DNA from: an uncultured Pseudomonadales bacterium
GTDB lineage: Bacteria > Patescibacteriota > Microgenomatia > UBA1400 > PJMF01
DNA length: 58,365 bases
NCBI GenBank assembly: GCA_964537665.1
Contig: CAZIBP010000002.1
Span: forward strand, 1-58,365
Direction: 5' to 3'
Below are positions 25,388-53,825 of the stretch, one piece after another. The notes under the pieces were generated by a model, which searched no databases, was not told the origin of the DNA, and saw only the letters and a program-made list of their open reading frames with translations. The first letter of the stretch is position 1. The number at the start of each line of letters is the position of its first letter. Position numbers and translations under genes: made by a program.

Positions 25388-25461
25388 TCGGAGAGACAGG
25401 ACTCGAACCTGCGACCTTACGCACCCCATGCGTACGTTCTAGCCATCTGAACTACTCTCCG
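25388..25461 (-). tRNA. tRNA-Pro(GGG)
   Basis: The reverse complement folds as a canonical cloverleaf: acceptor CGGAGAG/CTCTCCG, D arm GTTC...GAAC, anticodon arm TACGC-ATGGGGT-GCGTA, T arm GCAGG-TTCGAGT-CCTGT, discriminator A. No encoded CCA. Confidence 0.9.
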
Positions 25462-32645: not shown

Positions 32646-32666
32646 CCTTCTAATAATCCTATAATA

Positions 32667-32695
32667 TTGACAATTTGCAATTATAAATATATAAT
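32667..32695 (+). promoter_or_regulatory. Sigma70-type promoter TTGACA-N17-TATAAT; the start codon lies 8 nt after the -10 (near-leaderless)
   Basis: TTGACA at 32667-32672 and TATAAT at 32690-32695, with the ATG at 32704. It is preceded by a further ATCCTATAAT element at 32656-32665. Confidence 0.6.
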
Positions 32696-32703
32696 AGCCA
32701 ATC

Positions 32704-33396
32704 ATGAAAACTAATATGAAGAAAATCGTTTCTTATTTATTGATTTTAACTGGTTTCTTTTTGTTTTTTGCCAACGTGGCCAACGCTAAAGAATGTCAAA
32801 CCGTTTATGGTGGTGGTGAAGTCTGCGAAACTGGAGAACTCAGTTTAGACAAAAAAGTTTTTAACCCCAAAACCAATGAGTATTGGGATAATATTGACAG
32901 CAAGGACTACACTTTTGCTCCTAATGAAGAAGTGAAATTTAGTCTGCGTATCAAAAACATTTCCAATATCAAAGTTGATAGTGCTCGCATTAATGATGAC
33001 TTCGATCGCCTCGATGACTACATGGTTTTTGTCAGTAGTGATAAGGGTGACTATCGTGCTGAAGTAACAGATCACAAAGTTAAATTTGAATTTGGTGGAC
33101 TTGAGCCAGGTGCTGAGGCCACTGTTTATTTTGTTGCTCGTTTTAAACTCGAGGATAAATTGCCAGTTGGTACCACTTGTCTTACTAATGCCGCTCACGC
33201 TTATTCTCATGTTGACGCTGTAAGTGATAGTGATTACGCCACTTTTTGTGTCAAAACTGACAATGGTAAAATTGTGACCAAAAGCACTCCAGCTACTGGG
33301 CTTAATCTTGGCACAATCTTGGGTTTAGAAGCCTTAGCTTTTGCTGGACTTGGTTCTATAGCTTGGAGAAAAGCTAAGTTAATTATTAAAAAATAA
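32704..33396 (+). CDS. Cell-surface protein with signal peptide and C-terminal sortase-type sorting signal (PATG variant)
   Basis: Signal peptide (...FFANVANA|KE). C-terminus KSTPATG followed by a hydrophobic stretch and a WRKAKLIIKK tail. Confidence 0.75.
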   Translation: MKTNMKKIVSYLLILTGFFLFFANVANAKECQTVYGGGEVCETGELSLDKKVFNPKTNEYWDNIDSKDYTFAPNEEVKFSLRIKNISNIKVDSARINDDFDRLDDYMVFVSSDKGDYRAEVTDHKVKFEFGGLEPGAEATVYFVARFKLEDKLPVGTTCLTNAAHAYSHVDAVSDSDYATFCVKTDNGKIVTKSTPATGLNLGTILGLEALAFAGLGSIAWRKAKLIIKK

Positions 33397-33424
33397 TTCT
33401 TTTTTTGATTGAATTGAAATTGTA

Positions 33425-33450
33425 AACCCCGCCAAAAAGGCGGGGTTTTT
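33425..33450 (+). terminator. Intrinsic terminator
   Basis: AACCCCGCC-aaaaa-GGCGGGGTT followed by a T run. Confidence 0.8.
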
Positions 33451-33470
33451 GAATAGAATGTTGAGGCTTA

Positions 33471-33498
33471 TTGACTTTTTACAAAATTATCCTATAAT
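33471..33498 (+). promoter_or_regulatory. Sigma70-type promoter TTGACT-N16-TATAAT (second copy of the ATCCTATAAT module)
   Basis: TTGACT at 33471-33476 and TATAAT at 33493-33498. There is no ORF for ~200 nt downstream. Confidence 0.6.
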
Positions 33499-33706
33499 AT
33501 TTGTCATTGTTCCTAATCCAGATAAGAACAAAATTTAATTACTTGACTTTGCGTCTAGAAAATTGAATTTAGATCTGGCCGTACTTTAAAAAACTTGTCA
33601 AAATTGGAGCAACATTAAGGACACCTTTAATTTTTAGAGGTGTTTTTCATGTTGTTCCAATGCGCACGCGAGCAATCGCGTGTAGCCCACAAAAAAGAGG
33701 TTTGAA

Positions 33707-34177
33707 ATGAGTAACTTTTTACTCTCTGTTTGGTTTGTTTTGTCCATGTGGTTTGGCAGTCCCGCCCCAGCCACAGTCGCATTGTTGCCGGATAACGGCG
33801 ACGAGGCGATGAATATCCACACCAACGTTCGAATTTGGTCGCTGAGCGATCATGAAGTGGAAGTTGGCGCCTCTATCGGCATCCTGGAGCTTGTATGCTC
33901 TCAGAATGGTGAATCACCTGTTGATGGTTACACGCTTACCACTTCAGGTGGACAATCGGTAATTTATGTTTCCGATTGCGCTGATCTGATTTCAAGTGGC
34001 GGAGCCACTTATCAGGTCATCGAGACAGCCTTCCCGATGCTCGTTACTTGCAATGCTGACTGCGAGGTTTACACCTTGCACAAAACATTCGAAAGTGACG
34101 GGCTGACCCAGCAAGTGGGGAAAATCTGGGTCCGAGTCATTGGTCCAGATCCACAACTCATTGTGACTGGCAAGTAA
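33707..34177 (+). CDS. Hypothetical secreted protein, G+C-rich foreign-looking gene (ORF A)
   Basis: SD aagagg sits 8 nt upstream. N-terminal hydrophobic signal-like segment. About half G+C in the lines I counted. Terminator immediately downstream. Confidence 0.65.
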   Translation: MSNFLLSVWFVLSMWFGSPAPATVALLPDNGDEAMNIHTNVRIWSLSDHEVEVGASIGILELVCSQNGESPVDGYTLTTSGGQSVIYVSDCADLISSGGATYQVIETAFPMLVTCNADCEVYTLHKTFESDGLTQQVGKIWVRVIGPDPQLIVTGK

Positions 34178-34183
34178 GTATGG

Positions 34184-34212
34184 AAAGCGCGCCTCAAAAG
34201 GGCGCGCTTTTC
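34184..34212 (+). terminator. Intrinsic terminator
   Basis: AAAGCGCGCC-tcaaaag-GGCGCGCTTT followed by T. Confidence 0.75.
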
Positions 34213-34258
34213 TGTAGTCAAAACTACTTAGTTTCAAATTCTTATATATCCTATAATC

Positions 34259-34287
34259 TTGACAAAAGTGACTTATAGTGATATACT
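34259..34287 (+). promoter_or_regulatory. Sigma70-type promoter TTGACA-N17-TATACT (third copy of the ATCCTATAAT-TTGACA module)
   Basis: ATCCTATAAT at 34248-34257, TTGACA at 34259-34264 and TATACT at 34282-34287. Confidence 0.55.
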
Positions 34288-34293
34288 TTGTTC

Positions 34294-34689
34294 TAGTTAG
34301 GTAGGGAATGGCTTAACTAACAATAAATATTTCCCCTACTTGATCGACAGTTTCAACTGTCTTAACAACATAGTGTTTTTTGGCAGAGAAAAGGTTTCTG
34401 ACCGCTTGCTTCATTTCACCATTCCGAAATAAGCGATAAGTTGCCAGAGGCCTCCTCTCTGCTCGAGAGAGCAGAATGGTATCTCTAATGAGATATTGTC
34501 TCTAGGCGATAGCCGCTTAGCAGATGGTAATAAATCTCAATTAGAGACGCACTTTAACATTTGAAGAAGGATGCCTTTGGTATTTTGCCCAGCTTTTTTG
34601 CCCATCATTTTTTGGTGATCAGAAAAGCTGGGCTTTGATGCCGCAAGGCAAAGGAGTCGAACAAATTCACGCGCAAAGGAGATAAAATC
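34294..34689 (+). ncRNA. Candidate long structured 5' leader or ncRNA upstream of the lipoprotein ORF
   Basis: About 400 nt with no ORF of 60 aa or more in any frame between 34238 and 34604. At least seven hairpins, including a 7-bp stem with a GAGA loop (34458-34475), an 11-bp perfect stem (34587-34597 with 34623-34633) and a GCAA-capped stem (34639-34650). Confidence 0.35.
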
Positions 34690-35283
34690 ATGCGCAAAAT
34701 TACGTTCGTTATGTTCTTGGTCGTGGTGGTGAGCTTCGTGCTCGTCGCTTGCGGTTCTGCCGCACCGACCAACCTCAGCGCCGAGGATTTGGTGGCAACG
34801 CTCACCGCGATGCCCACCAACACCCTCTCGCCGACTTCCACCTCCGTGCCGACCAGCACTCCACTTCCTCCCACCAACACCCCGTTGCCTTCACCCACGT
34901 CTGTGCGCGATACCGGCATGCAGCTTAATACTGCCGCCGATATCCGCGTGCTCTTCGTGAAAGTGAATGGCTGGGTGAGCGGCGGCGAGGGTCAGTGGGT
35001 CGCTGGAGCCCAGGGCGCGCTTCGCAATGATCTTATCTTGAAGGACTTGCCCGAAGGGGCAACCTTTGAGTTTGAGTGTGTGCAATATCACACTCTTGGT
35101 GGCTCCATTGTCATCAAAAAGGTTTGCCCGAACGCGACCATCAGCTACAGCGAGGTCATCCCCGCTGGTAGTGTCGGCACGATGTGGTTGGATTGGGCGG
35201 TCATGCGCAATGGTGACAGGCTTGACGAGGATTTCCTCAACGAGCCTTGCGCTTGCCCTTCGGGCGATTGCCGCAAACCGTAA
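34690..35283 (+). CDS. Hypothetical lipoprotein with Pro/Thr-rich linker, G+C-rich foreign-looking gene (ORF B)
   Basis: SD aaggaga lies 7 nt upstream. Lipobox LVAC|GS, PT/S-rich linker and G/C-ending codons. Confidence 0.7.
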   Translation: MRKITFVMFLVVVVSFVLVACGSAAPTNLSAEDLVATLTAMPTNTLSPTSTSVPTSTPLPPTNTPLPSPTSVRDTGMQLNTAADIRVLFVKVNGWVSGGEGQWVAGAQGALRNDLILKDLPEGATFEFECVQYHTLGGSIVIKKVCPNATISYSEVIPAGSVGTMWLDWAVMRNGDRLDEDFLNEPCACPSGDCRKP

Positions 35284-35303
35284 CCTCTCCTTCCTCAAAT
35301 TGT

Positions 35304-35327
35304 CCGGCCTGGTTCAAACCAGGCCGG
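35304..35327 (+). terminator. Stable GC hairpin after ORF B (no U tract)
   Basis: CCGGCCTGG-ttcaaa-CCAGGCCGG, a 9-bp stem. The lack of a T run makes terminator function uncertain. Confidence 0.45.
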
Positions 35328-35397
35328 CAACCCAAAGATTTTGATTTAATTGATCTTCGAAATTTTTGAGTTGCGCCACACGTTTCAAATTTAAAAT

Positions 35398-36759
35398 ATG
35401 CAAAAAAAATCCCTTAAAACTTTGTTAAAAAGTTTTAATAAGGCTAATACTATTTTAGTTATTTCCAAATACCCTTATCAGAATATTGGGGAGTCTTTTC
35501 ATGGAGTAGCGGTTTACACCAGAGATACTTTGGAAACGATTGCTAAAAAAACTAAGCAAAAATTTGTAGTTTTAGTAGAGGCAAAATATGGTCGTGAAAT
35601 GGAGCTTAGAGCTAATGGTTCAGTTTTAATTTTGCCAGTTTTTGATAATCATCAAGTTTTAGTTTTCAAGCAATTATTGACTACTTTGAAAAATTTTAAT
35701 CAGGTTAAAAATATCCAATTGCATTCTGAATTCTACAATTCAGGTGACTTATTGCAAATGTCTTTGCTTTTGCCTTTTTTGTATTTGCTACGTTTGCAGG
35801 GCAAAATTGTTAGTTTTGTGGCCCACAACGTGGTTCATGATTTTGCTTTTTTGACCAATCATTTTGGCAAAGAAGCAACTGATTGGCGCTTTAATTTACT
35901 TTCTAAAGTTATTCCTTGGTATTATCGCTTCTTATCTTTGGGTGTAGAACAATTCATCACCTTAGATGAGAGCATCAGTGAGCGTTTGAGTTCTTATTTG
36001 TGGCAGAAAAATAAAGTTAAAAATACTGTAATTTGGCTAAAAAATAAAAAAATTACCCACAAAGAGAGAGTGATTGCTCGTCGCAAGCTTGCTTTAAATA
36101 GAGACGATCTTGTTTTGTCCGTTTTTGGTTTTATGAGTCGTTATAAGGGCGTGGATGTAGTTCTGCGTCATTTTTTACGTTTTAAAAAAGAATTTCCAAA
36201 TAGTAAATTTAAACTTTTATTAGCTGGTGGTATGGCTCCTTCACAAAAAAATCATGCTCATTATCAAAATTTTTATAAGGGTTTAGAAAACCTAGCAGCT
36301 AAGCATCAAGATATTACTTTAACTGGTTTTATTCCTTCAAATGAAGTTAAATCCTATATGGCTTTGACTGATGTGGTTTTATTGCCTTATCGCGGTATTT
36401 TGGGGGCTTCGGCTTCTTGGTCAACTGTTCTTAGTTATGGCAAAGCTTGTTTTTTTTCTAAAGCTCTTGAACCATATTTTATGGCAAGAGATGTAAAAAT
36501 TGCTTTGCTTAAATCTAGAATTAGCAAAGAAGAATTGATTTTTGGCAATAATTATCAGTCCTTTAGAAACTTACTTTTAAATTTGGAAGTTAACAATAAG
36601 TTATTAAATAAGTCTCTGATTTTTTCCAAGATTCTACGTTTTTCTAGAGACGAACGGGCTCGTGTCTTTCGTGATTTTCCACCTTTGTACTTTCCACGTT
36701 CTGCTGCTAAGACGGCTCAATCTTGCTATAATTTGAGTAATGAAGAAATTGCTGTCTAG
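35398..36759 (+). CDS. Glycosyltransferase, GT-B fold (GT1/GT4-like)
   Basis: The C-terminal half resembles the Glycos_transf_1 pattern (LSVFGFMSRYKG..., LLLAGG..., GFIPSNEVKSYMALTDVVLLPY). Confidence 0.7.
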   Translation: MQKKSLKTLLKSFNKANTILVISKYPYQNIGESFHGVAVYTRDTLETIAKKTKQKFVVLVEAKYGREMELRANGSVLILPVFDNHQVLVFKQLLTTLKNFNQVKNIQLHSEFYNSGDLLQMSLLLPFLYLLRLQGKIVSFVAHNVVHDFAFLTNHFGKEATDWRFNLLSKVIPWYYRFLSLGVEQFITLDESISERLSSYLWQKNKVKNTVIWLKNKKITHKERVIARRKLALNRDDLVLSVFGFMSRYKGVDVVLRHFLRFKKEFPNSKFKLLLAGGMAPSQKNHAHYQNFYKGLENLAAKHQDITLTGFIPSNEVKSYMALTDVVLLPYRGILGASASWSTVLSYGKACFFSKALEPYFMARDVKIALLKSRISKEELIFGNNYQSFRNLLLNLEVNNKLLNKSLIFSKILRFSRDERARVFRDFPPLYFPRSAAKTAQSCYNLSNEEIAV

Positions 36760-53647: not shown

Positions 53648-53718
53648 GGGCTCGTGTGCTGGTGCGCAGGTGAATCCGTGAAATTCATTCTTAGGGGGTT
53701 CGATTCCCCTCGAGTCCA
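53648..53718 (+). tRNA. tRNA-His(GUG)-like gene with non-canonical features
   Basis: Acceptor GGGCTCG/CGAGTCC, anticodon arm TGAAT-CCGTGAA-ATTCA (anticodon GTG) and T arm GGGGG-TTCGATT-CCCCT. However, the D region is only 16 nt, position -1 is A and the discriminator is A. Confidence 0.5.
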
Positions 53719-53825
53719 CAACAATATTTGATTCAGTAGTTTGTGTAAATTACATTTGCAAAAAGAAGTAAAATTTGGTATAAAATGGGTACACGGATTC
53801 ATCCTCGGGCAACCGAGAAGAATAA

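Follow-up and report, generated by a model that had tools for sequence, protein, structure and literature searches.

What occupies the roughly 400 nucleotides (nt) that separate a strong promoter from the start of a lipoprotein gene in a genome of the Candidate Phyla Radiation (CPR)? The question is raised by contig CAZIBP010000002.1 of assembly GCA_964537665.1, recorded as an uncultured Pseudomonadales bacterium and placed by GTDB in Microgenomatia, UBA1400, PJMF01; the whole stretch of 58,365 nt that was analyzed is referred to here as the window. A first-pass annotation of this DNA described positions 34294-34689 as a hairpin-dense untranslated region and proposed that it is a cis-regulatory RNA or noncoding RNA (ncRNA). 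The present analysis bears that proposal out: homologous loci are conserved and covary, the fold is far more stable than in shuffled sequence, and no ORF is kept in position or frame. Between a strong promoter and the lipoprotein start, the plus strand encodes an RNA that is new, elaborately folded and specific to one clade. The features of the locus are collected in Table 1.

Conservation and covariation of the leader

The promoter TTGACA-N17-TATACT is present at 34259-34287 as annotated, matching 11 of 12 consensus positions in a promoter scan and carrying TG ahead of the -10 box. Every one of the 12 full-length copies has, ahead of the RNA, a block of the form CC(T/C)ATAA(T/C)NTTGACAAA...TATA(C/A)T, and the transcript is predicted to start at about 34294, where the first bases (UAGUU) are invariant. 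The Shine-Dalgarno (SD) sequence AAGGAGA and the ATG at 34690 also stand as described. The same is true of the absence of any open reading frame (ORF) of 60 amino acids (aa) or more between 34238 and 34604, an interval with ORFs of 25-33 aa only; a 104-aa ORF on the minus strand begins at 34605.

Homologues were gathered through protein searches with the lipoprotein and with the downstream glycosyltransferase, from contigs encoding those proteins, and by two DNA-pattern scans. Twelve distinct full-length copies (the window, L079, L085, L083, L082, L077, L086, L080, L092, L003, L070 and L089) and two partial ones (L068, L073) were found at the same position in related Microgenomates genomes. 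In an nhmmer profile search, each of 12 distinct genomes or contigs gave a single copy at its locus, and the rest of the 58-kb window gave none; the lipoprotein with identical flanks is also present in an independent assembly. In aligned columns, pairwise nucleotide identity is 78-87% for the leader, 75-88% for the coding sequence of the glycosyltransferase and 68-84% for that of the lipoprotein, so that leader identity at least equals that of the adjacent coding DNA. The 5' domain is missing in three copies (L003, L070 and L089). No such RNA lies upstream of the more distant glycosyltransferase relatives L087 and L088 (42-44% identity), so the family appears restricted to a single narrow lineage of the CPR. 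Phage and viral collections yielded no homologue of the RNA.

Species-representative genomes, scanned for an exact 17-mer, gave 53 matches, where chance alone is estimated to give about 70; only those from the two LaPlata bins are genuine. A single metagenome pattern scan returned one true copy (L077) and three chance matches in an actinobacterial helix-turn-helix (HTH) gene; its pattern demanded GCAGAA and was thus blind to GUAGAA variants. The complete genome CP011212 (L092; 853,053 bp) is assigned by a published phylogenomic study to the Microgenomates order UBA1400, family PJMF01, with 36% G+C (PMC7143001), at odds with the title of record CP011212.1, 'candidate division TM6 bacterium GW2011_GWF2_28_16'; the locus in this record has 35.6% G+C. 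Several related metagenome-assembled genomes (MAGs) are titled 'uncultured Pseudomonadales', which appears to be a mislabelling.

The folding energy of 34294-34689 on the plus strand is -144.5 kcal/mol, compared to -97.9 +/- 6.1 kcal/mol in 100 dinucleotide shuffles (z = -7.67; none of the 100 as good). Two further homologues also fall far below their controls (z = -9.68 in L092 and -7.61 in L003), and the minus strand of the window region gives z = -4.42. Over all counted helices, canonical pairs make up 91.9% of cells on the plus strand versus 84.1% when read on the other strand. This excess, with 141 G-U cells, places the structure at the RNA level and on the same strand as the promoter and the gene.

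Covariation was assessed with three covariance models built from subsets, every matched copy being realigned (R1 and R2 with all 14 sequences, R3 with the eight that keep the 5' domain), and was compared with shuffles (500 for P4-P6 and for P7-P9) and with slid partners. P4, P5 and P6 (34458-34547) are 89.6% paired versus 75.6% when shuffled (0/500 as high) and 37-46% when slid, and 19 of their 34 pairs change on both sides. For P7, P8 and P9 (34571-34654) the corresponding values are 92.0%, 82.2% (0/500) and 39-52%, with both sides changed in 18 of 35 pairs. The P1-P2-P3 junction (34383-34462) is 96.9% paired (92.8% shuffled, about 50% slid; 5/20 pairs changed on both sides), and the 5' domain is 90.6% paired overall (88.2% shuffled, 34-51% slid; 2/16). 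Across P1-P9, 42 pairs have changed on both sides, and pairing is 90-97% compared to 76-93% in shuffles and 37-52% with slid partners. Judged from these alignments, compensatory changes go beyond the controls, as is expected of a conserved structured RNA.

Table 1. Features of the leader RNA locus, with positions in the window. Percentages give the share paired across the aligned copies.
Feature	Position	Strand	Description
ORF1 intrinsic terminator	34185-34213	+	GCGCGCC-tcaaaag-GGCGCGC then TTTTCTG; read from sequence
Promoter	34249-34287	+	Upstream box TCCTATAAT 34249-34257; -35 TTGACA 34259-34264; -10 TATACT 34282-34287
Structured leader RNA	34294-34689	+	~34294 (predicted 5' end) to base preceding AUG; 396 nt
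Hairpin H1 (5' domain)	34294-34302 with 34311-34319	+	Loop holds GGAATGG 34305-34311; 98.7% paired, 0 pairs changed on both sides
Helix P1b (5' domain, 34294-34339)	34301-34308 with 34330-34339	+	P1a/P1b 87.5% paired
Hairpin Pb	34346-34361	+	GACAG-uuucaa-CUGUC; 97.5% paired
P1 (core junction, 34383-34462)	34383-34389 with 34456-34462	+	GCAGAGA/UCUCUGC; 100% paired, invariant
P2	34393-34400 with 34445-34452	+	96.9% paired, 2 pairs changed on both sides
P3	34413-34417 with 34426-34430	+	91.3% paired, 3 pairs changed on both sides
P4	34458-34475	+	UCUGCUC-GAGA-GAGCAGA; 100% paired, 13 sequences
P5o	34482-34489 with 34540-34547	+	Composite rod P5-P6 (34482-34547)
P5i	34490-34493 with 34535-34538	+	Composite rod P5-P6
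P5c	34494-34501 with 34522-34529	+	88.4% paired, 4 pairs changed on both sides (alignment A9, model R1)
P6	34502-34520	+	Loop form NNNGC; 88.8% paired, 7/7 pairs changed on both sides (A9, R1)
Invariant junction GCAnnUUAACA	34549-34559	+	UUAACA identical in 14/14 sequences
P7	34571-34583	+	AUGCC-uuu-GGUAU; 79.3% paired, 4 pairs changed on both sides
P8, long hairpin with variable tip	34587-34633	+	95.8% paired over 19 pairs, 8 changed on both sides
P9a (P9, 34633-34654)	34633-34636 with 34651-34654	+	
P9b	34639-34650	+	UGCC-GCAA-GGCA
P11	34671-34695	+	GCGCA 34671-34675 with UGCGC 34691-34695; SD AAGGAGA 34676-34682 in loop; AUG at 34690
Lipoprotein gene	34690-35283	+	197 aa; lipobox LVAC-G, Pro/Thr linker, Cys-containing C-terminal domain; SD AAGGAGA upstream

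Helices, alternative pairings and the start-site hairpin

Every helix listed in the first-pass annotation is found in the sequence, but comparative support for them is uneven. Four are strongly supported: the GACAG/CTGTC hairpin, which covaries (Pb), the GAGA-capped stem (P4), the GCCCAGCTTTT/AAAAGCTGGGC stem (P8) and the TGCC-GCAA-GGCA hairpin (P9b). The third pair of Pb is U-A in four sequences, C-G in three and G-U in one, and in L092 the whole stem is swapped for AGCAA/UUGCU. One pair of P4 is U-A in 11 sequences and C-G in two, with two others G-C or G-U. In P8 the stem, CCAGCUUUU/AAAAGCUGG, hardly varies in sequence. P9 is 93.3% paired with six of nine pairs changed on both sides, as where GUCCUU/AGGGAC in most copies becomes GUCUUU/AAAGAC in L003 (P9a). 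Both P4 and P9 are capped by GNRA-type loops.

Among the remaining helices, the outer parts of the composite rod (P5o and P5i together) are 84.8% paired with seven pairs changed on both sides (A9, R1). P6 reads CUAGGCG/CGCUUAG in the window versus AGUAGA/UCUACU or CCGGAA/UUCUGG in other copies, and the final two bases of its loop (GC) are strictly conserved. P7 is a perfect AAAGCA/UGCUUU stem in L092, and the P3 loop ACCAUUCC (34418-34425) is strictly conserved and unpaired. Three copies (L077, at 1408-1475, L082 and L086) carry an extra insert of about 65 nt between Pb and P1, with two hairpins (for example CUUUUUGC-uuu-GCAAAAAG) and no counterpart in the window; from its sequence, this insert is taken to be a lineage-specific expansion segment of the RNA.

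Other annotated helices are kept but face competitors. The pairing of 34301-34308 with 34331-34339 is retained as P1b and is exclusive with the better-paired 5' hairpin H1, while 34384-34389 with 34395-34400 (90% paired) is rivalled by P1 (100%) and P2 (97%). The local hairpin at 34479-34496 (88% paired) and the long-range P5 helix are mutually exclusive. In the rod, the 3' strand 34540-34547 has two possible 5' partners, 34482-34489 (P5o) or 34498-34504; the latter is the annotated GTCTCTA/TAGAGAC pair, which is kept at 74.5%. The same two pairs covary with both partners, U-A with C-G and C-G with U-A. P1 and P4, each fully paired, overlap at 34458-34462, where the 3' strand of the one is the 5' strand of the other. 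The annotated CCTTTG/CAAAGG pairing turns out to be part of a long-range alternative around P9.

Loop GGAAUGG of H1, in the 5' domain, and loop CCAUUCC of P3 are complementary in all eight sequences that have both (94.6% of cells paired, 0 covariation), and both motifs are missing from the three copies without the 5' domain. We hypothesize from this complementarity that the two loops may form a 'kissing' contact. A pairing of 5' GUUA with the invariant UUAACA, proposed by RNAalifold, was rejected; it has no covariation and is rivalled by a local GUUA/UAAC helix, which persists as a minimal hairpin in L089.

The earlier claim that mutually exclusive helices lie next to ribosome-binding sequences, as in riboswitch or attenuator logic, stands only in part. 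Alternative pairings are conserved, but the 'first SD-like AAGGAG' (34651-34656) does not persist as an SD in other copies, where AGGGAC or AAAGAC takes its place; it forms the 3' side of P9a, a helix that covaries. The leader has neither a terminator nor a conserved ORF. The element that touches the translation start is P11, which the first-pass annotation did not list. When positions -32 to +10 are folded, the AUG, or at least its UG, is paired in 12/12 lipoprotein-linked copies (10 full-length and two partial), with free energies of -5.4 to -9.2 kcal/mol and the SD in a loop of 12-16 nt. The general form is (A/G)CGCA(U), five or six bases just 5' of the SD, with (A)UGCG(U/C); at the outer end of the stem the window has G-C and other copies have A-U or G-U, one of these three pairs being present in most copies.

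Downstream genes and genomic setting

In all 12 full-length loci the RNA is followed immediately by the start of a gene on the same strand. Nine of these genes encode the same lipoprotein family, in which a variable Pro/Thr/Ala linker is followed by GWVxGG...CVQY...KVC...GTxWL...NKPCxCxDGDCR; although the downstream lipoproteins look unrelated at first sight, these nine have a common C-terminal domain. In L089 a different lipoprotein has the same start, AUGCGUAAA, with the mature protein replaced and P9-P11 kept. The lipoprotein of the window has no Pfam match, its domain is an orphan (13 matches among 1.84 billion representative proteins), and its AlphaFold model is useless (pLDDT 35).

The composition of this gene is unusual. 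Its G+C content at third codon positions (GC3) is 0.42-0.71 in every clade genome (window, L079, L083, L080, L085, L086 and L003) versus 0.20-0.38 in the adjacent glycosyltransferase; the high GC3 persists despite divergence to about 50% identity, and a simple recent transfer is insufficient to account for it. The N-terminal linker (...LVATLTAMPTNT... then Pro/Thr repeats; window 34780-34900) is common to many lipoproteins of Anaerolineae/Chloroflexi (L004-L014), unlike the C-terminal domain, which is limited to this CPR lineage. On sequence grounds the lipoprotein may be chimeric in origin, or genetic exchange with Chloroflexi, as a possible host, may have taken place. The Chloroflexi loci that share the linker gave no BLAST match to the window leader; their leaders are short, about 20-70 nt from the upstream terminator (by eye, in four loci with a visible terminator).

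The leader lies in a stretch (33600-35400) with 45-63% G+C, compared to about 35% for the A+T-rich window as a whole. Upstream, ORF1 (33707-34177) has an intrinsic terminator just past its end, which is read here as the 5' limit of the leader's transcription unit; weak Rfam matches to terminator-type small RNAs (sRNAs) overlie it at 34185-34213. The ORF1 unit (33450-34230) is present in the window alone and encodes a 156-aa secreted protein (GC3 0.52) without a Pfam match, with its own promoter at 33471-33498 and a terminator-like hairpin (33617-33647) within a leader of about 200 nt. In L003, L070 and L080 the promoter of the RNA directly follows the terminator of a DUF11 gene. A 24-nt direct repeat with 79% identity (33403-33426 and 35339-35362) surrounds the G+C-rich island of ORF1, RNA and lipoprotein gene, although it may be mere similarity of terminator-flank sequence.

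The upstream box and TTGACA of the RNA promoter are also found in front of the DUF11 gene at 32657: the exact 17-mer TCCTATAATNTTGACAA (34249-34265) recurs ahead of this DUF11/CLIPPER surface-protein gene (32657-32706). The shared 17-mer suggests a common promoter class or a regulator site of envelope genes. The -10 box TATAAT of the DUF11 gene ends 8 nt ahead of its ATG, with no SD, so its mRNA may be leaderless. Elsewhere in the window, ARAGORN places a tRNA-His (GUG) at 53648-53719, where the Rfam tRNA model is below its gathering score.

Function of the leader and comparison with known systems

There are several potential explanations for a leader of this kind. We favor, with evenly balanced confidence, a cis-acting 5' leader that sets either initiation at the P11-held AUG or the lifetime of the mRNA, possibly by switching folds in response to a signal. 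The sigma-70-type promoter (34259-34287) would direct transcription of a 5' leader of about 396 nt on the lipoprotein mRNA, a leader that folds into at least 10 helices (5' domain, P1-P2-P3, P4, the P5-P6 rod, the UUAACA junction, P7, P8, P9 and P11). The large conserved fold would serve for sensing or for protein binding, and a switch among the conserved alternative pairings would alter either the ease with which ribosomes start at the P11 AUG or the survival of the mRNA. Linkage to the gene is supported by the leader running directly into the SD in every copy, with no internal terminator, by the pairing of the AUG in P11 in all 12 lipoprotein-linked copies, and by L089, where P9-P11 persist along with the lipoprotein start. 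Several observations weigh against this explanation. L082 and L092 have unrelated membrane-protein genes downstream and keep the fold through P8 with P9-P11 replaced, which indicates that the conserved domain is independent of this particular start site. No helix was found that joins the large fold to P11, a hairpin that at -5 to -9 kcal/mol is itself weak and does not cover the SD. Around P9, the long-range alternative that includes CCTTTG/CAAAGG is 79% paired versus 76% in shuffles, a marginal difference. At 330-500 nt the leader is also two to five times longer than most riboswitch aptamers. The sequences all come from one narrow clade, so the shuffle statistics overstate independence. In addition, we infer transcription, the 5' end, read-through, switching and any effect on translation or stability. 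The retention of the fold before unrelated genes, the lack of a connection between fold and P11, and the inferred nature of transcription keep two rivals alive.

One of these rivals, which we consider somewhat unlikely, takes the fold from the 5' end through P8/P9 to be the functional product, a stable ncRNA or ribonucleoprotein (RNP) scaffold, perhaps processed, that acts in trans while the gene uses the promoter by read-through. The size, complexity and conserved loops of the RNA resemble those of large bacterial ncRNAs of unknown function, and the L082 and L092 loci speak for it as well, as does a possible small terminator, GCCCCUGGGGUUUUC, just past P8 in L082. The P8 stem sequence and UUAACA are invariant, which fits protein or tertiary contacts, and the GGAAUGG/CCAUUCC loop complementarity is conserved. 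However, a terminator scan found no terminator-like site within 34294-34689; P8 is followed by CUUUGAUG or UCCUUCGU with no U-tract, and neither a U-tract nor a terminator follows P8/P9 in the window or in other lipoprotein-linked copies. The spacer to the gene is short, filled with hairpins and, by eye, without an evident separate promoter, and the same-strand gene follows directly in 12/12 loci. Less probable still is a constitutive expression leader, in which a stable 5' structure shields an abundant envelope-protein mRNA from exo- and endonucleases and displays the SD in a loop, with no sensing or switching. The near-consensus promoter, the H1 hairpin right at the predicted 5' end, the SD in the P11 loop and the different secreted or membrane proteins encoded downstream in different genomes are consistent with such a role. 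A 5' hairpin alone would suffice for protection, however, and more than 10 covarying helices, the invariant UUAACA, ACCAUUCC and NNNGC, and alternatives with both partners covarying would be left unexplained; moreover, three genomes lost the 5' domain yet kept the rest.

It is very improbable that the region holds no RNA element at all and is instead an overlooked gene for a small protein or a feature of the DNA itself, such as repeats or binding sites. Gene callers did run ORFs into the region in L080 (2885-3870) and L083 (3044-3862), where automatic calls stretch the lipoprotein ORF or add a 73-aa ORF over the 3' half of the RNA, and one reading frame (...GPAFVEII..., through P8) recurs in several copies. 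This single recurring frame is broken by the variable-length tip of P8. Comparison of ORFs of at least 20 codons in 12 leaders found none conserved in position or frame, with start, frame and stop all varying, and thus no small protein-coding gene with a conserved codon pattern. Within the conserved blocks none of the three codon positions varies, and the compensatory changes and G-U excess are strand-specific signatures of RNA. The gene calls into the RNA in L080 and L083 are wrong; the lipoprotein gene really starts with the conserved AUGCGUAAA that follows the SD.

Whichever function applies, the hosts are organisms with tiny genomes and no genetics, in which a 400-nt RNA represents about 0.05% of a 0.85-Mb genome (CP011212); its strong conservation implies a function worth the cost. 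The genes around the RNA form a cell-surface cluster, and the surface proteins of episymbionts could plausibly mediate attachment to the host. The anomalous GC3 and Chloroflexi-like N-terminus of the lipoprotein raise the possibility that the RNA is tied to an episymbiotic lifestyle. We tentatively suggest, as a speculation, that the leader represents the first class of large structured RNA (330-500 nt) specific to CPR/Microgenomates: a bistable sensor or RNP RNA, with several alternative pairings and complementary loops that are conserved, governing a lineage-restricted surface lipoprotein through a new ligand or partner. A literature search found no published regulatory RNA specific to CPR/Patescibacteria and no published description of this RNA. 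The results yield a testable candidate for a new class of riboswitch-like or RNP RNA, an alignment that can seed an Rfam family, and a correction for gene callers that overrun the RNA.

The first-pass annotation recognized no named RNA family, and Rfam agrees. With Rfam 15 (4227 models, cmscan) there is no match at the gathering threshold in the leader, the only one in the window being a tRNA at 25388-25461. Positions 34100-34800 give chance-level matches only at E <= 10 (11-20 bits versus thresholds of 33-229), and eight homologous loci have no match. Compared to riboswitches and T-box leaders, the RNA shares the position in the 5' untranslated region (5' UTR), a conserved aptamer-like domain (the covarying multi-helix fold from promoter to SD), mutually exclusive pairings and GNRA-capped hairpins. 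It differs in having no intrinsic terminator and no demonstrated SD-sequestering helix, and in having no Rfam match, T-box and c-di-GMP classes included; for the T-box, there is no RF00230 match even at E <= 10, and the downstream gene encodes a lipoprotein and is not aminoacyl-tRNA-related. As to an expression platform, P11 pairs the AUG and leaves the SD in its loop; alternative pairings are conserved, but none could be connected to P11. The context of an orphan lipoprotein gene points to no ligand. A transcription attenuator would differ in three respects, since there is no conserved leader ORF, no terminator-like site within 34294-34689 and no U-tract after P8. P11 resembles translation-start hairpins and RNA thermometers in being short, marginally stable and inclusive of the start codon, although in contrast to thermometers the SD is in the loop and not paired, there is no ROSE or fourU motif, and a conserved fold of about 350 nt lies upstream.

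Stabilizing 5' UTRs of abundant envelope-protein mRNAs, such as the E. coli ompA leader and the B. thuringiensis cryIIIA STAB-SD, are short and simple. The leader has in common with them a strong promoter, a secreted or surface gene, a hairpin at the extreme 5' end and an internal SD-like purine tract; unlike theirs, this tract is base-paired within P9a and is not maintained as an SD, and the folding goes far beyond what protection needs. Of the marks of an independent sRNA gene, a promoter is present; a terminator is absent from the window and most copies, with a possible one in L082 only. The large ncRNAs raiA motif RNA, OLE, ROOL, GOLLD and HEARO differ from the leader in that it has no Rfam match, is represented by about a dozen sequences in one Microgenomates family, and adjoins, without an intervening terminator, the SD of the gene that follows. 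The likeness to these RNAs lies in a length of several hundred nt, many covarying helices, conserved loops and junctions, a G+C content above the A+T-rich genome background, and a fixed neighborhood (the raiA RNA is also found just upstream of a gene). We file the leader as a new RNA family within a known kind, that of structured 5' leaders and large bacterial ncRNAs.

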